Below are positions 1-9,119 of a stretch of DNA of 9,119 nt, piece after piece (within the stretch, counting starts at the first letter, position 1; the number at the start of each line of letters is the position of its first letter). Source of the DNA: a virus (taxonomy: Duplodnaviria > Heunggongvirae > Uroviricota > Caudoviricetes); IMG/VR virus record IMGVR_UViG_2698536443_000014, positions 1 through 9,119 of that record; one strand, written 5' to 3'. The notes beneath the pieces are model-generated. The model was not told the origin of the DNA and did no database searches. It worked only from the letters and a program-made list of their open reading frames with translations. The translations under genes and the position numbers were made by a program.

Positions 1-157
1 CCAGACCCGCCATAACCAGCTGGGTCAGTATTAACTGGCAGCGTTCGCGTGAAAGGTAAGTATTCTGCGCAATCTCCCCGACTGTCGCCGGTTCGGTGAC
101 GCTCAATTCATTAAACACCACTCTGGCGGTTTCGGTCATATCTTGCTGTTTTAGCAT
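1..157 (-). CDS. Partial CDS (5' end only; continues past window start), hypothetical protein with helix-turn-helix-like N-terminus
   Basis: Reverse-strand ATG at 157..155 opens a frame that stays open to position 1 (MLKQQDMTETARVVFNELSVTEPATVGEIAQNTYLSRERCQLILTQLVMAGL...). Not in the supplied ORF track because it has no stop in the window. The GEIAQ...SRERCQLIL segment has an HTH-like pattern. Identity unknown. Confidence 0.35.
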   Translation of the reverse strand, partial: MLKQQDMTETARVVFNELSVTEPATVGEIAQNTYLSRERCQLILTQLVMAGL

Positions 158-276
158 GTCTTTTTCCCTTCTGGTTAACATGACATACCAATAACTCTTG
201 TCTAAAAAGCCAGCAAGATAAAAAGTCAGTATTCACGACCACCAGCGTGTTTACTGTACTGCACCAAGTTTACAGG

Positions 277-304
277 TACAAAAAACCCGCTCAGTGGCGG
301 GTTT
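277..304 (-). terminator. Rho-independent terminator downstream of the 434..1051 gene
   Basis: Perfect 8-bp stem (283-290 AAACCCGC / 297-304 GCGGGTTT) with a 6-nt loop. On the minus-strand transcript the hairpin is followed by a U-run (UUUUUUGU, partly within the stem). It lies about 130 nt after the stop codon at 434. Confidence 0.55.
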
Positions 305-433
305 AAGTTGTGTGGCGAAGTAACCACTCTTAACACACTAATAGCATTTTTGTTATAACACAAGTAGCTCATTCAGTATTTTTAGAATCTTGACTTTCTT
401 AAGCACGGCGAACTCTGAATACCAAACATAAAA

Positions 434-1051
434 TCAATTATCTTCCAGGCCGGATGCTATCAACGAAAGCCTCTCAAAAAACGCTGTAGCAGCCTTGTCC
501 AAAGTTGAATAAGTACTGTATTCTCCGTGTTCGGGACCAACCACTACCCATGGTCGTCTTTTTGGGATTCGGGACTTCTCAGAAATCACTGTTCCAGATA
601 TACCAATATCAATTGTTACACCTGTTATTATTTTCTCTTCATCTCTTTCCCTGAACTCAATTGCCATAAATGCCGTTTTTTTTCGTTTCCCGTTTTTAAA
701 AAAATCAAATAAAGCAAAGCGATGCTCATTAAAATCAACACCCCATCGTCCTTCAGGATAAAGGGCATGAAAGTTGTCATTTACGCTCTGCATCGTCTCA
801 TAAGCTTTAACTTCTAAATCTCCATAGTGCATAGATACCGCGCAGGAGTCACTGGGTAACTGTATTTTCCCAAGATTGAAAACCTTTACTGCTCCAGAAC
901 TATGGCATCTTGCCCGCAATTTATCCCCATTTATACTAATCGGAGAAATATTCCTTAATGTTCCGGGCTGGCTCCCTCCTAAGTAAACGACTGTTAAAGA
1001 TTGCTTATTTTCAATTGCATCAACTAATACATGCTCTACATTTTTATCCAT
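434..1051 (-). CDS. Hypothetical protein, AT-rich accessory (moron-like) gene immediately downstream of Q; function unknown
   Basis: The ORF track gives 434..1078. I prefer the internal ATG at 1051 (MDKNVEHV...) because it is preceded by GGGAGA at about 5-nt spacing, whereas the ATG at 1078 has no Shine-Dalgarno sequence. Stop TGA at 436..434. The gene is visibly more AT-rich than flanking genes. I recognise no family signature in the protein. Confidence 0.6.
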   Translation of the reverse strand: MDKNVEHVLVDAIENKQSLTVVYLGGSQPGTLRNISPISINGDKLRARCHSSGAVKVFNLGKIQLPSDSCAVSMHYGDLEVKAYETMQSVNDNFHALYPEGRWGVDFNEHRFALFDFFKNGKRKKTAFMAIEFRERDEEKIITGVTIDIGISGTVISEKSRIPKRRPWVVVGPEHGEYSTYSTLDKAATAFFERLSLIASGLEDN

Positions 1052-1126
1052 AATAATCTCCCAATGAACAGGTATCATCAGGAGGTTATAATAAAATATG
1101 ATTATTTACTTTGATTGAATTTATTA

Positions 1127-1498
1127 CTATATGTAACAATCAATTTCTAAAGATACCCCCAACATTGCCAGACAACCGTCAATAAACCCTTCAGCTTTCT
1201 GCAGTCTGATAACAACCTGATTAAGTGATATCCCCAGTTTTACCCCCAACACCCGTAATGTAACCCCATACACATAATACATTTCCAGTAATTCGTATTG
1301 ATACGGTTCCTTTTTCTTAAGAACTGTCATCGCAGAGCTAATGATCAGGCCATCGTCATCGCTACATTGCGGGCGGGATTTTACTTTCGAAGGAATTAAT
1401 CCCTTAAAACCTGCAGCAACAGATGACCATTCCACATCCTCGTGATTATTTGCCACCCATGCCCCCCAACGTTCAAGAACCATTTGAATATCACGCAT
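1127..1498 (-). CDS. Late-gene antitermination protein Q (phage 82 / QuuD-QuuQ type)
   Basis: Protein MRDIQMVLERWGAWVANNHEDVEWSSVAAGFKGLIPSKVKSRPQCSDDD... matches from memory the N-terminus of Q82-type antiterminators of E. coli lambdoid prophages. Start taken at the ATG at 1498, preceded by GGAGAAAG; the track's TTG at 1513 is less likely. Stop TAG at 1129..1127. Confidence 0.85.
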   Translation of the reverse strand: MRDIQMVLERWGAWVANNHEDVEWSSVAAGFKGLIPSKVKSRPQCSDDDGLIISSAMTVLKKKEPYQYELLEMYYVYGVTLRVLGVKLGISLNQVVIRLQKAEGFIDGCLAMLGVSLEIDCYI

Positions 1499-1515
1499 CA
1501 ACTTTCTCCACAAAA

Positions 1516-2511
1516 TCAGGCCAGCACGCCTATTGCCAGCGCACGATCGATAAAACGAAATATCAGCTCCAGCTGGGAGCCATACTTCTCTTCAAATGCC
1601 ACGGTATCCGCATGCAGCTCGTCGTGATGCTTTCTGCACAAAGGCAGCACGAAGAGGTCATGCGCTTTTGTACCCATTCCCCCCTGACCGTGGCCTATCA
1701 GGTGGTGGGGATCATCAGCAGGCTTTCCACAACATGCACACGGCTGCGTCTTAACCCAGCGCGTGTACTTTTCGTTAACCCAGCGGCGACGTTTTGGGCG
1801 TAACATAAAAGACTCCGGCGACTCCGGATCCACTTTCAGCGCCAGCACCTTTTTCGCTTTATTCTGGATGATGCTGGTGGCCGGAACCGAAGGCACAAGG
1901 TCACTCTCCCGGGTGACAGACGGCACAACAGGCTTCGGTAATCTCAGTGCCTTACGGGCTGCACTTTCCGGTAAGGCATCCGCCAGATCATTACGAACCA
2001 GCCACCAGCACAGTTCCGGCATTGTCACAACGTGACTGTCATCAAAACCGAGATCCCGACGCACAACAGACAACACCCAGCGGGCACAGTTATCCGTTGC
2101 CATTGATTCCAGCCGTTCCGTGAACTGATCGCGCAGCTGGTTATCGCAGTGCCAGCACAGACGGATTGCGCCCGGCGCGTGTCGCATTGTGGTCATGTTC
2201 TCGCTGTGCCAGTCGGAATGAGGCCACTGGCAACCTTTTTCACGAAGTAACCAGCTTTCAAGACATTCCACGCCACCAGCACGACGGATCACTGCCTCAT
2301 TGCGGAACACGGCCCGAACGGCAGGATCATCCGCCAGCGGTTGTGATGCTGCCGGAACGGCACCACTGGCAAAAGATGAATAACGTTCCGGCTCAGGCTC
2401 CAGCAGGACACGCCCCTGCATAAACAGGGGCATCAGCTCTGAACCGGGTCTGAACAATACGATCCCCATACGCGGGGCAATTTCAGGGGTCAGTAGTGCT
2501 CTCACAGTCAC
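1516..2511 (-). CDS. DUF968-family (YdfU-like) phage protein with C-terminal Cys/His HNH-like motif
   Basis: 331-aa ORF. The C-terminal segment (CACCGKPADDPHHLIGHGQGGMGTKAHDLFVLPLCRKHHDELH) is a typical CxxC...HH...H motif of YdfU/DUF968 proteins that sit upstream of Q in lambdoid prophages. The start is uncertain: the track uses GTG at 2511, one base after the upstream gene's TGA, with weak ribosome-binding context. Confidence 0.65.
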   Translation of the reverse strand: MTVRALLTPEIAPRMGIVLFRPGSELMPLFMQGRVLLEPEPERYSSFASGAVPAASQPLADDPAVRAVFRNEAVIRRAGGVECLESWLLREKGCQWPHSDWHSENMTTMRHAPGAIRLCWHCDNQLRDQFTERLESMATDNCARWVLSVVRRDLGFDDSHVVTMPELCWWLVRNDLADALPESAARKALRLPKPVVPSVTRESDLVPSVPATSIIQNKAKKVLALKVDPESPESFMLRPKRRRWVNEKYTRWVKTQPCACCGKPADDPHHLIGHGQGGMGTKAHDLFVLPLCRKHHDELHADTVAFEEKYGSQLELIFRFIDRALAIGVLA

Positions 2512-2512
2512 C

Positions 2513-3322
2513 TCAATGAACGGTATCGAGCAGCTTTAACAGCTCAGGAAATCGGGATTCGAAGAAATGCGGCTGCGTCTCGCGCGGATTTGCAGGACTG
2601 GTGATGTTCTTGCCGAACATGCAGCCTTTCGCGGTCAGCGACCAGAATTTTTTGATGTTGTTAATCGCGGTACGGCTGTATCGTTCGCGTTGTTCAACGA
2701 TCCCCAGCTTCACCATCTGGTGATATGCCTGATTAGCCGTCAGGCGGATACCATACTGCTTCAGCAGTGCACTCAGTGACAGCGTGGGGCGGCTTGAGCC
2801 ATCAGGCGCGTCAGCAGGAGCATCAATGGCATAGCGCGGTGCCAGATTCGGTAAGCCAACAGCCTCCTGGAGTTTCTGACAGGCCCCAAGCACTGAAGAG
2901 TTAGACAGGTTTAACTCCCTGCGCATAAAGTCCAGCAGAATCACTCCAGCCTGCATCTTGTCAGCAGCCTGCCCGGATAATTTTTCCGGTGCGCTGGTTA
3001 CCATATCGAAAGTACGGATCACCTTCAGATGGAATGACGGGCTGATCCACATTGCATAGGCATACACCAGTTCTTTGCAGACATACGTCCCCTGGTTATT
3101 TCCGCCATTAATGACGCTAACTGGTTGATTTTGTTCCAGAGGCGGAATTCCACCCTCGGTGAAAAGTTGTTCAATCAATTCACAGGTTTGCTTATTGGAG
3201 AGCCAGTATTTCGGGCGTTTTTTTTGTTCTCCCCCGGCTGCCCTGTGCAGATCGTTCAGGCTGTAACGCCCATAAGCATCACGACGAACTTCAATACCAT
3301 CAATGACCATCAGATTATTCAT
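2513..3322 (-). CDS. KilA-N domain protein (antirepressor/Bro-like family)
   Basis: N-terminus (VIDGIEVRRDAYGRYSLNDLHRAAGG...RPKYWLSNKQTCELIEQL...GTYVCKELVYAYAMWISPSFHLKVI) matches the KilA-N DNA-binding domain signature. Strong Shine-Dalgarno (AAGAGGAGAAA) upstream of ATG 3322. Stop TGA at 2515..2513. Confidence 0.8.
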   Translation of the reverse strand: MNNLMVIDGIEVRRDAYGRYSLNDLHRAAGGEQKKRPKYWLSNKQTCELIEQLFTEGGIPPLEQNQPVSVINGGNNQGTYVCKELVYAYAMWISPSFHLKVIRTFDMVTSAPEKLSGQAADKMQAGVILLDFMRRELNLSNSSVLGACQKLQEAVGLPNLAPRYAIDAPADAPDGSSRPTLSLSALLKQYGIRLTANQAYHQMVKLGIVEQRERYSRTAINNIKKFWSLTAKGCMFGKNITSPANPRETQPHFFESRFPELLKLLDTVH

Positions 3323-3341
3323 ACTTCGTTTCTCCTCTTAA

Positions 3342-3731
3342 TCAGGCGGCTGCACCCGCCGTTTTCTCGTACTTACTGATAGTGATCTCGACCTTCCCTC
3401 CCGGGATAACCGATCCCCACTCAACCAGCATTCTTTTCACCTGACTGTCGTCTTCCCACACACCCGCGTGGGTCAGGGCGTCAAACAGCGCCTTGTTATA
3501 GTTGTCCAGATCGCGGATCCGGTTATCCGGAGGAAACAACACGATCTCCACTGAAGCAGGTGCCGACGTTGGTTTCGGCAGACGACGTAACTGCTCAATG
3601 ATGGCGGCACACGCCGCGCTCTGGAATTTTCGTCCCGCCGTGCTTATCAGGCTCTTACCAGCAAACGCCCCTTTGTTGGGGTGTCGCCAGTACGTGTTCA
3701 CGCTGGGCGGAAACGGCAGAATCAGCTTCAT
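3342..3731 (-). CDS. rusA: Holliday junction resolvase RusA (crossover junction endodeoxyribonuclease)
   Basis: 129-aa protein (MKLILPFPPSVNTYWRH...DNRIRDLDNYNKALFDALTHAGVWEDDSQV...) carries the RusA family signature, including the catalytic-region D-x-D-N motif. Start ATG 3731 overlaps the upstream stop (ATGA). Confidence 0.85.
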   Translation of the reverse strand: MKLILPFPPSVNTYWRHPNKGAFAGKSLISTAGRKFQSAACAAIIEQLRRLPKPTSAPASVEIVLFPPDNRIRDLDNYNKALFDALTHAGVWEDDSQVKRMLVEWGSVIPGGKVEITISKYEKTAGAAA

Positions 3732-4054
3732 ACTTTCAGGCCCCTCTCATGTAACCAGTGGGCTGCACGCAGCCTGGCGTTTTCCTCACCGGCAAGCAGT
3801 GAGCGGATAATCCCGACCGCCTCGCTGTCGTCGTCCTTCACCGCGGTATGAAGCGTGATGCCCCGGGCCACGCCACGCTTTATCGTGATGACGCCTTTTT
3901 TCTCCAGTGCGCGAAGATGCTCCACTGCTGCATTCACTGAACGGTATCCCAGCATGGTTGCCACCTCCTGATTGGTTGGCGGAAAGCCACGCTCTTTCTG
4001 GTAAGAAATCAGCATATCCAGCACCTGCTGCTGGCATTGAGTTAACGTCGTCAT
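3728..4054 (-). CDS. LexA N-terminal DNA-binding-domain-like protein lacking the S24 peptidase domain
   Basis: MTTLTQCQQQVLDMLISYQKERGFPPTNQEVATMLGYRSVNAAVEHLRALEKKGVITI resembles the LexA winged-helix DNA-binding domain (MKALTARQQEVF...[36 protein letters not shown]). The ORF is only 108 aa, so there is no autoprotease domain. ATGA overlaps at both ends. Confidence 0.65.
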   Translation of the reverse strand: MTTLTQCQQQVLDMLISYQKERGFPPTNQEVATMLGYRSVNAAVEHLRALEKKGVITIKRGVARGITLHTAVKDDDSEAVGIIRSLLAGEENARLRAAHWLHERGLKV

Positions 4055-4704
4055 GCCGCCATCTCCCTGACAAGTTTTTCTGCCTGCTGGCGAACCTGCG
4101 CCAGAAAGGCCTCACCACATGCCTCAAGTTCATCGCGCCCGATGTAGCTGATTGCCGGTCCCTTCCAGGTCTTGTCGAAAACAGCAATAGCACCAGCGAA
4201 GAACGCTCCTGTCGGCACCTGCTTCTCGTCTTTCGGGATAAACCAGACAGGCAGTTCAAAACCAATACGCCCGCGAATAAAAGCAATATGATCTGCATCT
4301 TCCGGCCACCACACTTCGCTGGTGGCAGCTTTGATCAGGAAAACATAGCGCCCGCCTTTATCACGCATGGCACTGGCATGCTTCATGATGTAACGCATGC
4401 CGGTGATGTATTGCCCCTCATGCTGACTGGCGCGGCTGTATGGGGGATTTCCAAAGGCAGCACCTTTAAGCTCCGCAAGACGTTCTGACCAGTCATGCGC
4501 CAGCGCGTTGTCTTCCGCCGTGTAATACGCGGCGCATTTGGCGTTATCACCGTCAGTAAACAGATCCAGAACAAACGGGCCAAACAGGGTGTTAATTCCC
4601 CAGAAAATGTTGTCCGGTGTGCGCCACTGATCGCCCACTTCCTTCAGTTCATGGGCTGGTTTGTTTCGCAGTTCCACCAGCGCCCGGCAATATTTATTAC
4701 TCAT
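4051..4704 (-). CDS. Phage N6-adenine DNA methyltransferase (Dam-like, NPPY motif)
   Basis: Contains the FGNPPY catalytic motif and upstream DLFTD-type motif typical of phage Dam-family methyltransferases. Start taken at ATG 4704..4702 (MSNKYCR...), which forms a TAATG overlap with the upstream stop; the track's 4737 start is a GTG extension. Confidence 0.8.
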   Translation of the reverse strand: MSNKYCRALVELRNKPAHELKEVGDQWRTPDNIFWGINTLFGPFVLDLFTDGDNAKCAAYYTAEDNALAHDWSERLAELKGAAFGNPPYSRASQHEGQYITGMRYIMKHASAMRDKGGRYVFLIKAATSEVWWPEDADHIAFIRGRIGFELPVWFIPKDEKQVPTGAFFAGAIAVFDKTWKGPAISYIGRDELEACGEAFLAQVRQQAEKLVREMAA

Positions 4705-5192
4705 TAAGCCCCCACGTAATTCCCTGACAGATACCACTCTTCACCTGATGCAGCGCGCTTGCTGCTTTTCCGTAAGCACCGCTCACGACGTGCCAGAAAA
4801 TTGTTTCGTTCTGGCTGGGAGTGGCTTTCACGGAATGCCGCCATCCACACGGTTGCAGCACGACGAAATAAGCCCCTGGACTCCAGTTCTTCCGCCTGGC
4901 GGGCCAGGCACAAAATCACCCGCGGGTCGTTAGTGCCGACATAGAAATTGCGCACAGGTCTGGTTTCACGAACTGGTTGCCGTTCCGCCTCCGGCGATAT
5001 CTTTGTCTGGCGCGGGAAATGTCTGCGTGCATCCCCTTCACAACGGTGAGCCACACGCCCACTCTGACGTAACTTGCTTGCTGACTGCAGAACGCGCTGC
5101 CGTGAGTAACCTGTAAAAGCATCCGCAATGTCTCCGGAAGTACACCCCGGATGGGCTTCAATGAATTTCTGAACGTCATTCAAAAGACTCAT
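4704..5192 (-). CDS. Hypothetical protein with C-terminal PerC/ANR-like motif
   Basis: 162 aa from ATG 5192 (Shine-Dalgarno AGGGGG; the track's GTG at 5198 is 2 codons upstream). The C-terminal segment LARQAEELESRGLFRRAATVWMAAFRE...RRERC resembles, from memory, the conserved core of PerC/ANR-family small regulators. The N-terminal half is unassigned. Confidence 0.5.
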   Translation of the reverse strand: MSLLNDVQKFIEAHPGCTSGDIADAFTGYSRQRVLQSASKLRQSGRVAHRCEGDARRHFPRQTKISPEAERQPVRETRPVRNFYVGTNDPRVILCLARQAEELESRGLFRRAATVWMAAFRESHSQPERNNFLARRERCLRKSSKRAASGEEWYLSGNYVGA

Positions 5193-5194
5193 GC

Positions 5195-6136
5195 TCACCC
5201 CCTGAATCCTGCCGGGATCTGGCTGTAGTCCACGTTGTCGTAACTGGCTTTGAAGTACGGGTCCTCGCGTTTTTCGGTGTACGTGCTGACGGACGGCGAT
5301 AAGCGCAGGGAAAGCTCATCCCATTTTTCCCGCAGCTTCGACGGGCTGAGCACGTTACGGCACCAGAACGGATCGCGACTGACGCGGCTGTACATCTCGC
5401 AGATTTGTTTATGAGTATGACCATCCTGCACACACATCAGGCGAATTTCGTTTGCCCAGGCTGTCCAGTTCGGTTCTTTGGGACGAACCACCTCGCCGTC
5501 ACATTCGGCAGCCTGCTCGTACAGGGCAATGATTTTTTTCCAGAGCCACTGTGCGCAGGTCAAATCATCCTGCGTCCCCCACTGGCGCTTTTTAGGGCTG
5601 AATACAACCGCATCAGGATGGCGAGTTAAAAAATCCTGTTCATCCGTCTGCGTGTCCGGTTGCGAAGCGTCCGGACGAGAAGGTTTTTTATCTGACGGAT
5701 CATGTTTTGATTTTACTGACGGATCCCCGCCAGATTCTGACGGGTGAAAACCCGCTTTTTTACCAGATTTCGACGCATCAAATTTTGACGGGTCAGATTT
5801 TGATGCGTCAGATTTTGACGGGTCAGAATCTGACAGTTGAGAAAATGCCGCTGCCTGAAGCTTCGCAACGTTAAGCTGATAAACATTCGACGCATTGCGG
5901 TTACCCTGGCGACGCGCCTTACGCGTTAACCAGCCTTCTGCTTCCAGCCGTGCGATAGCCGTTCTGACGGTACTCATCCCCGCGCCAATCTGGCGGGCAA
6001 TGGTTTCAATTGATGGCCAGCACACACCTTCGTCATTACTGAAATCAGCCAGGCGGGCCATAATTGCCACGCTGGATAACTTCATGCCTGACGCAGCGCA
6101 ACCATCCCATACATAGCCGGTTAATTTAGTGCTCAT
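5195..6136 (-). CDS. Phage replication initiation protein (N-terminal HTH domain, repeat-rich linker, DnaT-like C-terminal region)
   Basis: The N-terminus (LSSVAIMARLADFSNDEGVCWPSIETIARQIGAGMSTVRTAIARLEAEGWL) is a winged-HTH typical of prophage replication initiators. The central linker is encoded by tandem repeats. The C-terminal region resembles the DnaT-like domain of prophage replication proteins, called from memory. It occupies the O-gene position after cro/cII. Confidence 0.7.
   Translation of the reverse strand: MSTKLTGYVWDGCAASGMKLSSVAIMARLADFSNDEGVCWPSIETIARQIGAGMSTVRTAIARLEAEGWLTRKARRQGNRNASNVYQLNVAKLQAAAFSQLSDSDPSKSDASKSDPSKFDASKSGKKAGFHPSESGGDPSVKSKHDPSDKKPSRPDASQPDTQTDEQDFLTRHPDAVVFSPKKRQWGTQDDLTCAQWLWKKIIALYEQAAECDGEVVRPKEPNWTAWANEIRLMCVQDGHTHKQICEMYSRVSRDPFWCRNVLSPSKLREKWDELSLRLSPSVSTYTEKREDPYFKASYDNVDYSQIPAGFRG
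5690..5836. repeat. Iteron-like direct repeats (candidate replication origin) inside the initiator gene
   Basis: About five tandem copies of a 14-15-bp unit (TCAGATTTTGACGGG, TCAGATTTTGATGCG, TCAAATTTTGACGGG, CCAGATTTCGACGCA, TCAGAATCTGACAG) between about 5762 and 5836, plus degenerate copies with the TCTGACGG core at 5691, 5715 and 5735. In the protein frame they encode S-D-x-S-K repeats. Confidence 0.5.
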
Positions 6137-6145
6137 GACCGACCT

Positions 6146-6484
6146 CTATTTCCCTGAATTTACGACGAAACTGTTCGAGCGGACTGAAGCATTCATGCTC
6201 ATAACCTTCGCGGAGGTAGATAACCCGTTGTGTTTCCGGCTCCCAACGAATGACTCTGACGGGCACTCCGTAGTGATCTTTGAACCAGCGGTTAACTTGT
6301 CGCAAAGGACTGTCTCCTTCTGCCGGTTGAAATCACCCACAGCCCACTCTGCAAAGCTGTGGGTTACAATTTCCCTGTCACCTGGTACATTCACTGCATA
6401 GCAATATTCCACCTTCGCTTTTCCACCCGGAACAGGAAGCGCAATCAGTTGCGAGCGACGGTAGTGTGTTGTTAAACTGTTCAT
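6146..6484 (-). CDS. Hypothetical protein (C-terminal half doubtful; possible frameshift or overlapping gene)
   Basis: Start ATG 6484 overlaps the stop of the upstream CII-like gene (ATGA), which supports a real gene start. The N-terminal ~50 aa look protein-like, but the C-terminal half is Ser/Thr-rich and low-complexity, while an alternative frame over 6126..6305 looks far more protein-like (see findings). Confidence 0.4.
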
Positions 6485-7065
6485 GCGTTAGTTTCTCCAC
6501 AACCAGAAGCAATCGACGCCACGACGCCCGGAGCTGCACACTCGCGGGCGTTACTCTTTTCCGGCGCACAAAAAACACGAAATAACAGTGTTAAATGCTC
6601 CTGCCACTTCGCCATTACTTGGTAGCTGTTCTCTTCGATTTGCTCACGCTCAGCCTGGTCAATAACTCCATCAGCAGTTGCCTTGCGTAAGTACTGGGAA
6701 TGCTTGCCAATCCATTCTATTGACTCCATCAGCCGCTGATTAATGTCACCATTGTCAATGTCATCAATGACCACCAGCGGCACAAACACCCCATTACTAC
6801 GACGGGCTATTGCATCTGTTACATGCCTGGTACCACTGGCATCCTGTAAAACCATGGCCCACTCAAGTGGAAAAATTTGATCCCCACCGCTACGCAGTCT
6901 GTTATGCAATTGATCTTTTGCTGGGGTGATATCATCAGATTTATACAAACCAAGAATTTCTGCTGCTTCCTCATAGCCATGAGGTAAATCAGCAATCGTT
7001 CTTCGTATTGCTGCCACCAGCCATGCTGGTTGTTTATCAACTTTCCATTCAGGTTCTTTACCCAC
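6481..7065 (-). CDS. CII-like early regulatory protein (CP76/YdaT-type position and size), putative
   Basis: 194-aa ORF immediately downstream of Cro, GTG start at 7065 preceded by TGAGGA at about 6-nt spacing. The position is that of lambda cII or of the YdaT/CP76-type CII equivalents of E. coli cryptic prophages. The family call is by context and memory only. Confidence 0.45.
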
Positions 7066-7092
7066 GGTTAATTCCTCATTTCTGTGGTGTTT

Positions 7093-7290
7093 TTATGCCG
7101 CAGCACTGTTAGTCTTTTGATATAAAGACACGTCAACTTTCAGTTTCCCGTTAGTAATTTTTTCTAACTGGTACGCTCGGCCTTCAGGAATAATCTCAGG
7201 CCACTCTGAAACAGACGGATGCTTAATACCTAGGGCTTCGGCGGTTTTACAAACTCCGCCGAAATAATTAATCACGTCGGATTTCCGCAT
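7093..7290 (-). CDS. cro: Cro-like repressor (P22 Cro type)
   Basis: MRKSDVINYFGGVCKTAEALGIKHPSVSEWPEIIPEGRAYQLEKITNGKLKVDVSLYQ aligns along its length with P22 Cro as I recall it (MYKKDVIDHFGTQRAVAKALGISDAAVSQWKEVIPEKDAYRLEIVTAGALKYQ). It is divergent from the repressor gene across the operator region, with Shine-Dalgarno GGGAGA. Confidence 0.8.
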   Translation of the reverse strand: MRKSDVINYFGGVCKTAEALGIKHPSVSEWPEIIPEGRAYQLEKITNGKLKVDVSLYQKTNSAAA

Positions 7291-7321
7291 TTCTGTCTCC
7301 CGTTAAATTACGTTAAGCAGA

Positions 7322-7387
7322 AATGTAGGATATCCAACATGCTAATGTCAAGAATCCTACATGGGCATGTGGTAGGATTGCCTACAT
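7322..7387. promoter_or_regulatory. Right operator region (OR) with pR-like promoter (minus strand) overlapping the presumptive pRM
   Basis: 18-bp near-palindrome ATGTAGGATATCCAACAT at 7323..7340. Further half-site copies ATCCTACAT at 7354..7362 and GTAGGATTGCCTACAT at 7372..7387. On the minus strand: -35 TTGACA (complement of 7346..7351), 17-bp spacer, -10 CTACAT/TACATT (complement of about 7322..7328), directed toward cro. Confidence 0.6.
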
Positions 7388-8039
7388 GATGAACATGAGT
7401 GATCGTATTCGCCAAAGGCGAAAAGAACTGAACCTGACACAACAAGCACTGGCTGATTTGACTGGTGTGAACCGTGTCACGGTTACTGGATGGGAAAAGG
7501 ACGACTACCAACCAAATGGAGCCAACCTTCAAGCCCTAGCCAACGCACTTAAATGCGATCCTCTGTGGCTTGTTAGCGGAAAAGGCTCGCCTGAACCAAA
7601 GATAAATCTAAAACCTGAAATATTCGCAGTTAAAAAAGTCCCCCTAATCTCGTGGGTTCAGGCGGGTTCATGGACAATGACGGAGCCTGGTGTCAGGAAA
7701 GAAGATGCTGAAGAGTGGGTTTATACTACCGCCCTTGTATCAGAAATGGCATTTGCACTACGGGTCCGTGGTGATTCAATGACCAATCCCCTCGGCTCAC
7801 CATCGATACCAGAAGGTTCTATCGTTATCGTAGAGCCAGATATTATTGATACAGAGTGTATTAACGGAAAAATCGTTGTTGCCCATATCAATGGTGGGCA
7901 AGAAGCGACACTCAAAAAATTTGTTGAGGACTGGCCGAACAGGTATCTCGTCCCACTAAATCCTAACTATAAAACTATTGAATGCGGTGAGAACTGTAGA
8001 ATAGTTGGTCTTGTCAAACAAGTAATAATGGATTTTTGA
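7386..8039 (+). CDS. cI: CI-like prophage repressor (HTH-XRE N-terminal domain, S24 LexA-like peptidase C-terminal domain)
   Basis: N-terminal HTH (IRQRRKELNLTQQALADLTGVNRVTVTGWE). C-terminal S24 autopeptidase signature with GDSM serine motif and a downstream lysine (LRVRGDSMTNPL...EATLKKF). Starts at the edge of the operator region, consistent with a short-leader pRM transcript. Confidence 0.85.
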   Translation: MMNMSDRIRQRRKELNLTQQALADLTGVNRVTVTGWEKDDYQPNGANLQALANALKCDPLWLVSGKGSPEPKINLKPEIFAVKKVPLISWVQAGSWTMTEPGVRKEDAEEWVYTTALVSEMAFALRVRGDSMTNPLGSPSIPEGSIVIVEPDIIDTECINGKIVVAHINGGQEATLKKFVEDWPNRYLVPLNPNYKTIECGENCRIVGLVKQVIMDF

Positions 8040-8060
8040 CACATCTTCCTCACTATCGCA

Positions 8061-8085
8061 AAACCGGGGTATCCCCGGTTTTTTT
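8061..8085 (+). terminator. Rho-independent terminator after the repressor gene
   Basis: Stem ACCGGGG (8063-8069) / CCCCGGT (8073-8079) with a 3-nt loop, followed by a T7 run (8079-8085), 22 nt after the repressor stop codon. Confidence 0.6.
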
Positions 8086-8101
8086 ATGAGCCTATCTTTT
8101 T

Positions 8102-8155
8102 ATGTAGGATAACCAACATAAACTCTTGACACTCGCATGTTGGATATCCTACATT
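8102..8155 (+). promoter_or_regulatory. Left operator region (OL) with pL-like promoter
   Basis: ATGTAGGATAACCAACAT (8102..8119) and ATGTTGGATATCCTACAT (8137..8154, the exact reverse complement of the OR site at 7323..7340) flank and overlap -35 TTGACA (8126..8131), a 17-18-bp spacer and -10 CTACAT/TACATT (8149..8155). Spacer and -10 are almost identical to the pR-like promoter. Confidence 0.55.
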
Positions 8156-8313
8156 TGTTTTTAGAGTTGTGGTGAATGCGCAGGCTGATGCGCGAAAGAC
8201 ATTGCAGCTATTGCGGAAAAGAGCTGTTCGGCGGGGCAATTAAACGCCCGTGAGAGTCTGAAATAACCGCAAGCCGGAGATCAGCATCGGTCACCACAGC
8301 AGCCACTGCTTTG

Positions 8314-8360
8314 GCGGTACCAGTTTGTACACTTGCTTCCGGCTGGTACCGCTCTTTTTA
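8314..8360 (+). terminator. Long hairpin plus T-run in the pL leader (terminator-like; boxA-like CGCTCTTTTTA overlaps its 3' side)
   Basis: Perfect 10-bp stem GCGGTACCAG (8314-8323) / CTGGTACCGC (8343-8352) with a 19-nt loop, followed by TCTTTTTA. CGCTCTTTTTA at 8350..8360 resembles the boxA consensus (CGCTCTTTA). The long loop makes efficient termination uncertain. Confidence 0.4.
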
Positions 8361-8482
8361 CAAAACAGAGAAGAGCATCACCGGACGACGGGCTCATAAC
8401 CCAATCCACCCGGGCGGCTGCCACCGCAGGTGTTCTTCTCTGTTTTGTGGAGAAACTAATATCTTGTGCAGAGGAAAATAGA

Positions 8483-9029
8483 ATGAAATTACCAAAATTT
8501 CGTAACGCAATTGTGTACCGAGCAACATTACCTAGTATACAGGCTATTGAAGGTCATCTTCTCGAACTCCCTTATTCTGAAATCGGGGAAACAGAATTTT
8601 CACGGTCCTCTTTTGTAGAGAATCCTGTCACTGGTGAACTGGTAACTCCGATATCTGGTGGGTACGCAATGGTAATCCGTCATGATCAGAAAATAATTCC
8701 CCGACATGTCGTCATGAAAGAAGCTAATTCTCGAATCCGAACAATCGAAAATATGTCCGGGAATAAATTAAAGCGTGCCGAACGACTGGCCATTATTGAT
8801 AACGTACGAGTAGATCTATGCAAACAGGCATTTGTTAAGTCTACGCTGATTCTTGCATTGTACAGCACTGATGAGAAATTATTGGTAATCAACACAACCA
8901 ATAAAATAATAGCCGGTATGGTATGCGCAATGCTGATTAAGGTTGTCGGTTCAGTGAAAACAGAAACAATCAACATCAGTGATATCAAGAATGGACTGAC
9001 TACACGCCTGAATAACTACATCAATGGTG
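8483..9029 (+). pseudogene. RdgC-family recombination-associated protein gene, 3'-truncated by IS1 insertion
   Basis: ATG 8483 with Shine-Dalgarno GAGGAAAA; the track's 8333 start is a TTG extension through the leader. N-terminus MKLPKFRNAIVYRA matches the RdgC N-terminus (MLWFKNLMVYRL as recalled), with further colinear similarity over about 180 aa. The frame ends at a TAA (9032..9034) supplied by the IS1 terminus; full RdgC is about 300 aa. The gene is AT-rich. Confidence 0.6.
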
Positions 9030-9119
9030 GGTAATGACTCCAACTTACTGATAGTGTTTTATGTTCAGATAATGCCCGATGACCTTGTCATGCAGCTCCA
9101 CCGATTTTGAGAACGACAG
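9030..9119 (-). mobile_element. IS1 insertion sequence, terminal 90 bp (right inverted repeat end; element continues beyond window)
   Basis: 9030..9119 (GGTAATGACTCCAACTTACTGATAGTGTTTTATGTTCAGATAATGCCCGATGACCTTGTCATGCAGCTCCACCGATTTTGAGAACGACAG) matches the reverse complement of the IS1 right end, including the terminal inverted repeat GGTAATGACTCCAACTTATTGAT, with about 2 mismatches. Compared from memory. Confidence 0.85.
9045..9119 (-). CDS. insB: IS1 transposase InsB, 3' end (partial; start lies beyond window end)
   Basis: The minus-strand frame reads ...LSFSKSVELHDKVIGHYLNIKHYQ followed by a stop (TAA, complement of 9045..9047), which matches the InsB C-terminus as I recall it. Confidence 0.75.
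   Translation of the reverse strand: MSFSKSVELHDKVIGHYLNIKHYQ

Follow-up and report, generated by a model that had tools for sequence, protein, structure and literature searches.

An intrinsic terminator fused to a tRNA-like three-way-junction RNA in the early-left leader of lambdoid prophages

What does a long untranslated leader do between the early-left promoter pL and the first gene of its operon in a lambdoid prophage with no N-type gene at the head of that operon? The question is raised by a stretch of 9,119 nucleotides (nt) from a Caudoviricetes virus (IMG/VR record IMGVR_UViG_2698536443_000014, positions 1 to 9,119), here called the window, which contains the immunity and early region of a lambdoid prophage and reaches from pR to Q. 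Nucleotides 8156-8482 are the untranslated RNA leader of the early-left (pL) operon, since a cI-type repressor gene, a terminator and an operator-flanked pL precede them and an RdgC-like gene follows (Table 1). An initial annotation had described a terminator-like hairpin and a boxA-like string in this leader, and had considered a short pL-driven RNA, a cis-acting RNA of the HK022 put kind or a degenerate nut region that had lost its N gene. It overlooked a larger structure, in which that hairpin is merely the 5' neighbour of a 25-base-pair (bp) stem enclosing two further hairpins. The conserved unit of this gated leader is an intrinsic terminator fused to a tRNA-like three-way junction.

The leader consists of three modules: a 5' domain, the terminator T0 and a three-way-junction RNA of 103 nt. 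The region 8292-8459 folds with a free energy of -75.3 kcal/mol (z = -7.0 against shuffles). In the enclosing stem, 8355-8379 pair with 8429-8453; the 20 bp of P1 proper are extended into the U-tract of T0, where 8355-8359 pair with 8449-8453, to give 25 bp in total. Inside it lie the invariant arm P2 and the variable hairpin P3. A conserved tail follows on the 3' side, which in the pL version resembles a Shine-Dalgarno (SD) sequence (GGAGAAAC), and homology to most other phages stops at 8459. The weak hairpin just beyond corresponds in relatives to stronger hairpins of 5-7 bp with loops UUGCA, UGGCA or GUGCAGA.

The initial annotation had suggested folding and covariation analysis across homologous leaders, and both support a structured RNA. 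In an alignment of 30 diverged pL-leader versions, the window among them (A1; modelled with 20 bp in P1, 10 bp in P2 and 4 bp in P3), 94.9% of the cells were paired, compared with 36-50% in controls in which the 3' partners had been slid. Nine pairs had changed on both sides, for example one P1 pair from C-G to G-C in 13 sequences. The covariation score of A1, obtained as in A2 from related sequences aligned partly by anchoring on the invariant motif, was 0.167 against 0.089 after shuffling, a value reached by none of 500 shuffles. A second alignment (A2) followed the P2 arm across all three architectures described below and gave 92.8% pairing against 23-58%, with a covariation score of 0.315 against 0.138. 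Here the six outer P2 pairs were fully replaced at constant geometry (CCGGGC/ACCCGG, CCUGAU/AUCAGG, CUGUCU/GGGCAG, CUACCU/GGGUAG and CCAAUC/GAUUGG). The RNA is read from the plus strand, as indicated by 54 G-U pairs, by the U-run and by pairing of 94.9% against 90.5% for the minus strand. These substitution patterns indicate that the junction RNA is under strong structural selection at more than 150 prophage and genome loci. P1, with 20 bp plus the 5-bp extension and maintained by covariation, is as long as a stem cut by RNase III (about 20 bp or more), although cleavage is a prediction only.

How widely is this structure distributed? BLAST searches found 8040-8459 at about 99% identity in many E. 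coli prophages, 8163-8459 in mEp460 and some Stx2a phages, 8292-8459 in phages cdtI, 2H10, Ayreon and Stx2c, and 8312-8459 in SfV, SfII and SfIV. At 80-86% identity the block extends to Salmonella ST64B, Citrobacter phiNP and Klebsiella phages. Terminator and junction together (8313-8459, 147 nt), counted at a coverage of at least 80%, are present in 2477 of 5426 complete E. coli genomes (46%), with up to five copies. A search with an 18-nt core pattern returned at least 120 viral contigs, with at least 85 distinct versions among the matches listed. In one-genome-per-species data the same pattern retrieved about 25 genomes, labelled Enterobacterales except for one Chryseobacterium; one look-alike lies in a prophage-like region of an Acidobacteriaceae genome, and the other approximately 70 matches resemble chance, many of them within apparent coding sequence.

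Three architectures can be distinguished. Class A, to which the window belongs (about 125 loci), combines the terminator, a long P1, the core and the tail GUGGAGAAAC; it is always preceded by a cI-type repressor gene of many immunity types (27-100% identity) and always followed by YfdP/YfdQ-like or RdgC-like genes. Because both the immunity types and the following genes differ, the module is independent of its two neighbours; T0 and the junction RNA travel jointly as one mobile module. In class B (14 loci in Klebsiella and Raoultella phages), an outer stem of 6 bp closes the core, which is placed between Q and the lysis genes and begins a few nt after tRNA-Arg or, in some members, another tRNA. 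All 10 distinct class B sequences stand directly after tRNA genes and end in RCCA. Class C comprises elements of Raoultella and Pantoea prophages and of some viral contigs; a terminator again precedes them, their short outer stems are of other kinds, and they lie downstream of Q where the flanks are readable. The complete genomes of mEp460 and GZ7 carry exactly one copy each, and no second copy occurs in the pR operon or late region of the window, mEp460 or GZ7. Apart from the element, a non-coding block reading GGCGGYYAAUACCAAAACWGAGCGGCRGGAAGUAAG ... UGUCACAACC is common to the late leader of a Raoultella prophage (L185:2640-2720) and the pL leader of phiNP (L006:2370-2450). These leaders of 600-1000 nt are mosaics of several conserved RNA domains.

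Could the leader code for a protein, or preserve a nut region? No reading frame is conserved on either strand across the homologues of 8355-8457, in line with the initial annotation, which had found no convincing open reading frame (ORF) in the approximately 320 nt after pL. The element measures 103, 104, 105, 106, 107, 108, 123, 128, 130, 131 or 132 nt in homologues, with insertions and deletions not divisible by three, and some homologues have stop codons in all six frames. Owing to these frame-breaking lengths and stops, we rejected as spurious a minus-strand ORF of 47 amino acids (8281-8424; annotated as gp36 in mEp460) and an unconserved plus-strand ORF of 56 amino acids (8311-8481). A short (A/G)UG-GAG-AAA frame beginning in the tail was also discarded as unconserved. 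The 25-codon ATG frame singled out by the initial annotation does exist but is not conserved, its counterparts in relatives having 6, 7, 12, 15, 17, 35 or 46 codons. In a prophage of E. coli Nissle, a protein of 121 amino acids is encoded between pL and the terminator-plus-element module (L238:1254-1619); it scores 26.2 bits against the Pfam ClpX C4 zinc finger (cut-off 27), and RefSeq gives it that name. The 25-codon ORF of the window weakly resembles its N-terminus (CSYCGKELFGGAIK compared with CSFCGATEL-GAIK) and may be what is left of a gene for a ClpX-type zinc-finger protein.

A degenerate nut region is no better placed. There is no arginine-rich gene of the N family just 3' of pL, as the initial annotation had stated; the first gene is RdgC-like, and 8156-8482 contain no conserved ORF. 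The boxA-like string that it had reported, CGCTCTTTTTA (consensus CGCUCUUUA), does occur in the window, whereas CGCCCTTTTTA, CGACCTTTTTA or GCACTTTTTT stand at this place in homologues. Only the U-run is conserved there (the homologues are also listed as CGCCCUUUUUA, CGACCUUUUUA and GCACUUUUUU), and the resemblance to boxA is made up of the U-run of T0 and the last bases of its stem. No boxB, that is, a 5-bp stem with a GNRA-like pentaloop, occurs 3' of the boxA-like string, since P1 starts directly after the U-run; the sole small hairpin, at 8463-8474, lies 100 nt from the string and, with 3 bp and a GUGCAG loop, is no boxB. Although the boxA-like string at 8350-8360 and database records that place hypothetical proteins on the region speak for a lost nut site or for a coding stretch (the 47-codon minus-strand or 25-codon plus-strand ORF), its unconserved sequence, the missing boxB and N gene, the broken frames and the unconserved small ORF leave this explanation scarcely credible. 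Nor is the region decaying, given the structural selection described above. Elsewhere, database records leave the module unannotated.

The second module, T0, is the element that the initial annotation had recognised as a perfect 10-bp stem with a 19-nt loop and a U-run. GCGGTACCAG (8314-8323) pairs with CTGGTACCGC (8343-8352); counting two G-U pairs, the stem has 12 bp, with a free energy of about -19 kcal/mol. The U-run UCUUUUUA follows directly (letters TCTTTTTAC at 8353-8361), so that T0 has the GC-rich hairpin and adjoining U-run of an intrinsic terminator. A GC-rich hairpin with 5-7 U directly 5' of the element was retained in 27 of 30 diverged homologues examined. These use at least eight different stem sequences, such as GGCGGUACCAG, GCGGCAUC, GCGGCGCCAG, GUCGGCGUC and UGCCCAUC, with pairing retained, which is compensatory change. 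From the end of the U-run to the invariant motif the distance is a fixed 27 nt in nearly all pL-leader homologues. A consensus terminator scan with a loop limit of 8 nt did not list T0 because its loop of 15-19 nt exceeds that limit. A likeness of GGCGGTA in the T0 stem to the ops element of RfaH was rejected, as it agrees with the ops consensus at only 7 of 12 positions and the stem sequence covaries.

Is the terminator, then, the whole device? The compensatory changes in T0 make the short pL RNA ending at the hairpin, proposed by the initial annotation, plausible. Transcriptomics of Salmonella D23580 shows that the homologous leader of ST64B is transcribed and contains STnc1310, a 74-nt RNA induced together with the downstream genes when the prophage is induced; the downstream genes rise on peroxide and nitric oxide shock (PMC7067206). 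We mapped STnc1310 to a stretch that ends at another terminator-like hairpin of the same leader. As with lambda 6S, StxS (from pR') and STnc1310, an intrinsic terminator that would gate a lytic operon lies no more than about 200 nt from its promoter in the window; in the Pantoea and Raoultella versions the element is separated from the Q gene by a terminator, at the site expected for one serving a late promoter. However, those RNAs end at the terminator, whereas the conserved object here begins at it. An explanation in which T0 alone functions, yielding a small RNA of about 195 nt from pL, with the rest a passive structured spacer or the remnant of a decayed tRNA at a recombination boundary, would account for the conservation of T0 and for the short terminated STnc1310. 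It would also suit the fact that the homology blocks break off at 8459, at a 15-mer with a second copy in the window, and the truncated tRNA-fMet gene of an unrelated genome that bears the same 18-mer (see below). Selection on the junction RNA is instead shown by covariation and by loop and bulge nucleotides that stay invariant between genera and in three architectures, and conservation is lowest upstream of T0, in the part of the leader that would make up the small RNA. We regard the terminator-only explanation as highly doubtful.

The 15-mer itself, TTGTGGAGAAACTAA at 8445-8459, closes the RNA element where homology to other phages ends; a second copy, at 6488-6502 of the minus strand, precedes the start codon (ATG) of the gene 6146-6484 by 3 nt. 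It looks like an SD-like module-boundary sequence and may have a role in mosaic recombination. The interior of the 5' domain, upstream of T0, is variable and contains the hairpin GCGCAGGCUGAUGCGC; its closing sequences recur in ST64B and many other loci, and a compensatory GCCCA/UGGGC variant exists.

If N is missing, might the RNA itself act as antiterminator? A put-like RNA mechanism has been suggested for this phage family by Casjens and colleagues (PMC12315714). HK022 putL and putR are likewise structured RNAs in early leaders of a lambdoid phage without an N-type antiterminator, each forming a V of two stem-loops of about 74 nt (PMC9378689). The initial annotation's idea of a put-kind RNA nevertheless finds no footing in sequence, fold or arrangement. 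The local alignment score of the leader with HK022 putL is 21, against 22.7 +/- 3.5 for shuffles and 50 for putL with putR. Unlike put, the element lies about 190 nt from the start, downstream of T0, and occurs once per phage rather than once per early operon; the core model found no element in the scanned early region of HK022. The put RNAs act on the zinc-binding domain of the RNA polymerase beta' subunit, to which they bind, and counteract pausing and termination.

A processive antiterminator that is put-like in function and not in sequence, where the nascent junction would bind RNA polymerase and replace N, is a broader proposal. It is in keeping with the lack of an N-type gene at the operon head in the window, in module carriers wherever checked and, as reported, in a related phage, as well as with the RNA-based mechanism already suggested for relatives. 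The element heads long lytic operons, early-left or late, and its invariant single-stranded nucleotides would suit a binding surface. Set against this, the element lies downstream of the only strong terminator of the leader, and scans of the rest of the early-left operons of two relatives revealed no convincing intrinsic terminator. Moreover, each phage has one copy and none in the pR operon; late leaders under Q control also contain the element, a tRNA-like form of it ends in CCA, and it lacks similarity to put. Antitermination by the junction is thus in our view distinctly unlikely. Separately, a conserved RNA of about 65 nt directly follows pL in ST64B (L004:2433-2500), phiNP (L006:1833-1900) and the Nissle prophage (L238:1155-1222). 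It has compensatory changes and has CGAAC(R)G on the 5' side and an invariant GGAUGA on the 3' side in common with HK022 putL and putR. On this five-sequence alignment it may be a candidate put-family antiterminator of phages without N, the relative suspected earlier (PMC12315714).

The most specific clue to the junction RNA comes from the tip of P2. The 13-nt hairpin GGGCUCAUAACCC is identical to the anticodon stem-loop of the E. coli initiator tRNA, tRNA-fMet (metZ positions 30-42), and the identity extends to 14 nt if the preceding C is counted. The copy includes the G-C pairs typical of initiator tRNA. The members of A2 were gathered with a pattern that fixes these tRNA-like bases; in this alignment position 37 of the loop varies, whereas no variation is seen at loop positions 32-36 and 38, in two of the three G-C pairs or in the bulges (C, AA, C). 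Scans in which the triplet was left free found UAU, AAU, CCU or CGU instead of CAU in 8 contigs, compared with at least 120 stretches for the CAU scan; the rare variants fall at positions 34 and 35 and none at 36. The CAU triplet is therefore strongly preferred and not obligatory. Pairing of the CAU loop with downstream start codons or with the tail was judged by eye and rejected as inconsistent across members and sterically unlikely.

Several RNAs that are not tRNAs mimic parts of a tRNA, among them the thrS operator with its anticodon-arm mimic, viral tRNA-like structures and the tRNA-like domain of tmRNA. The element resembles them in that one part of a tRNA, the initiator anticodon stem-loop of 13 nt, is faithfully copied in it, and class B adds an acceptor-like stem and RCCA among tRNA genes. 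Unlike a tRNA, it has no cloverleaf, D arm or T loop: ARAGORN found none in the window or at this site of the late-leader loci, and the Rfam tRNA model had no match in the window. An acceptor-type end is likewise missing in the window, where P1 with its 20-25 bp and the tail occupy that place and there is no RCCA.

Two further tRNA likenesses were noted in passing. In a gammaproteobacterial metagenome-assembled genome (L212, about 3693-3710), a tRNA-fMet-like gene that lacks the variable region and the 5' half of the T arm recreates the 18-mer GGGCTCATAACCCAATCC; this may hint at a tRNA origin of the core or be coincidence. The P3 loop UCCUAA, found in 7 of 43 P3 types (for example L080, L036 and L005) and also at L234:310-384, occurs as in the anticodon loop CUCCUAA of tRNA-Arg(CCU) (argW). 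It is not the P3 loop of the window.

How might the three modules work together? Tentatively, and as a possibility short of a probability, we propose that T0 attenuates, that P1 is processed and that the core is released as a trans-acting mimic of the tRNA-fMet anticodon arm. T0 would gate the operon: read-in transcription would stop there, as would some of the transcription from pL, about 195 nt from the start, leaving a short RNA. Transcripts passing T0 would fold the 25-bp P1, taking up the U-tract, and P1 would be a processing stem, most likely for RNase III. Cleavage would free the P2-P3 core as a small, stable, tRNA-like RNA, and the downstream mRNA would gain a new 5' end. In the version of the Klebsiella phages, tRNA-processing enzymes would free the core, because it sits in a tRNA cluster and ends in RCCA. 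Once free, the core would imitate the anticodon arm of tRNA-fMet, or act as a decoy of it, for a host factor that recognises this arm. The framing of one invariant core in two unrelated ways, by a long duplex and by a tRNA cluster with RCCA, fits release as a separate RNA. In addition, operon and timing differ between the architectures, which argues against a role bound to one transcription unit.

The same anatomy could be read as a leader element that acts in cis alone, serving RNA processing or setting the stability or translation of the first gene. P1 would then be an RNase III site like that of the lambda N leader or sib, P2 would bind a protein or the ribosome in cis, and no free RNA would be functional. 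The lambda leader, with nutL and the N-leader RNase III site, also lies between pL and the first gene and has a long potential RNase III duplex. In the sib retroregulator, too, the extended duplex arises only in read-through RNA and includes terminator sequence. The window differs from these in having no N, conserved boxA or boxB and in a duplex that encloses an invariant three-way junction. A cis role agrees with a P1 of 20-25 bp that forms only after read-through and incorporates the U-tract of T0, with the conserved SD-like tail and hairpin just 5' of the first gene, and with the position of the element, always immediately 5' of the first gene of an operon. What it leaves unexplained is the occurrence of the same core elsewhere with outer stems of 5-7 bp that RNase III could not use, without the GGAG tail and, within a tRNA cluster, with an RCCA end; moreover, the downstream genes vary (YfdP-like, RdgC-like or holin) while the P2 core is invariant. 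We consider a purely cis role somewhat unlikely in absolute terms, yet almost on a par with release of a trans-acting mimic.

Several observations also weigh against release of a trans-acting mimic. Terminator activity, processing, action in trans and the target, that is, every functional step, are predictions from sequence, and the tight fusion of T0 to P1 together with the conserved tail could equally point to a purely cis role. The identity with tRNA-fMet is confined to the 13-nt apical hairpin, and a few lineages replace CAU. The pL version is recognised neither by ARAGORN nor by the Rfam tRNA model and has no CCA end. Finally, the window lacks the 65-nt put-like RNA of relatives as a candidate means for polymerase to pass T0.

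A more specific form of the mimic proposal makes the core a dedicated decoy of the initiator-tRNA anticodon arm that would neutralise or hijack a host factor reading tRNA-fMet, with RNase III excising it in the pL version and tRNA-processing enzymes doing so in late leaders. Candidate targets are the P site of the 30S subunit, MetRS and, in Shigella and Salmonella, the PIN toxins of the VapC/MvpT type, which cut this anticodon arm. In this dedicated form the proposal is unlikely.

The element is not a member of a described family. Rfam 15 at gathering score gave no match in the window or on the homologous leaders of five other phages, and with E values up to 10 the region 8000-8600 yielded chance-level matches only. 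One of these, 'Termite-leu' at 8045-8127 on the minus strand (E = 0.033; 21.7 bits against a gathering score of 51), falls on the cI terminator and operator palindrome and was dismissed. The M3 RNA of phi80, a known substrate of RNase P, was rejected as a homologue, M3 being a homologue of oop and phi80 having N; HnrS, a multicopy prophage small RNA, is a different RNA of the late genes. Matches to the Rfam families C4 antisense RNA and isrK in the antirepressor region of ST64B (L004:188-376, minus strand) are unrelated to the leader. An exact-sequence search of the literature found the core sequence printed in no paper. The module represents an RNA family not described before, although its parts (a terminator that attenuates, a stem for processing and a mimic of tRNA) are each of a known kind.

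The surroundings of the leader are those of a lambdoid immunity region (Table 1). The pL-like promoter is as the initial annotation had described it, with a start site predicted at about 8162-8163 from spacing alone, and a divergent pR-like promoter at 7351-7322 has the same hexamers. The minus strand also carries a CII-like gene, replication genes and genes for Dam, RusA, KilA-N and DUF968. The RdgC-like gene is cut off at 9031-9034 by the end of an IS1 element, and its Pfam match spans only model positions 3-167 of 298; the IS1 end (9031-9119) is 100% identical to IS1 copies of E. coli genomes. Four overlapping copies of a 30-nt repeat with 15-nt spacing at 5764-5838, within the replication gene 5195-6136 (minus strand), resemble origin iterons. 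The same repeats fill the yfdO-yfdP spacer of CPS-53, a prophage of K-12 from which both immunity region and RNA element have been deleted at this place. CPS-53, which has yfdP and yfdQ, was accordingly excluded as a carrier.

Table 1. Coordinates of the leader modules and neighbouring features in the window.
Feature	Position	Strand	Description
Three-way-junction RNA	8355-8457	+	103 nt; 111.6 bits with a covariance model built from 30 homologues, window sequence included; sole copy in window
P1, 5' arm	8360-8379	+	Pairs with 8429-8448; 5 pairs changed on both sides
P1, 3' arm	8429-8453	+	
P2, invariant arm	8381-8413	+	Outer CCGGAC/ACCCGG, GA/UC, bulges C, AA, C, apical GGG-CUCAUAA-CCC
P2 tip	8390-8402	+	GGGCUCAUAACCC; as initiator-tRNA anticodon stem-loop
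P3, variable hairpin	8414-8427	+	GCGG-CUGCCA-CCGC; 13-38 nt here in homologues
Conserved 3' tail	8447-8459	+	GUGGAGAAACUAA; its GGAGA can pair with the U-tract
Weak hairpin	8463-8474	+	3 bp, loop GUGCAG
Intrinsic terminator T0	8314-8361	+	Stem 8314-8325 with 8341-8352; U-run UCUUUUUAC at 8353-8361
5' leader domain	8166-8300	+	Long-range closing stem GUUGUGGUGA (8166-8175) with UCACCACAGC (8291-8300); minimum-free-energy fold
25-codon ATG frame	8176-8253	+	MRRLMRERHCSYCGKELFGGAIKRP; unconserved
pL-type sigma-70 promoter	8126-8155	+	TTGACA-18-TACATT; 10/12 matches
Operator copies (18 bp)	8102-8119 and 8137-8154		ATGTAGGATAnCCAACAT; bracket the pL -35 element
Third operator copy	7323-7340		Beside pR
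Terminator 3' of cI-type gene	8064-8085	+	CCGGGG-tat-CCCCGG then T7; A-run on 5' side
cI-type repressor gene	7386-8039	+	Pfam Peptidase_S24 plus HTH_3
cro-like gene	7093-7290	-	
RdgC-like gene	8483-9034	+	First gene of early-left operon; ATG 8483; SD GAGGA at 8471-8475
Q antiterminator gene	1127-1513	-	

For the control of the early-left operon in lambdoid phages without N (SfV, ST64B, phiNP, mEp460, LLS and several Stx2 phages), recent work only speculates on a put-like RNA. The conserved non-coding parts of their leader are now defined, with coordinates, a covariation-supported fold and two covariance models, and are neither nut nor put. The module, which Shiga-toxin phages also carry, is among the commonest unannotated structured RNAs of E. 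coli, and records often wrongly list it as a hypothetical protein. It is unusual for a phage leader to reproduce the anticodon hairpin of initiator tRNA exactly, and this copy is a clue to a host target. If the decoy proposal is true, nearly half of E. coli genomes would carry an RNA-based device for anti-defence or takeover.

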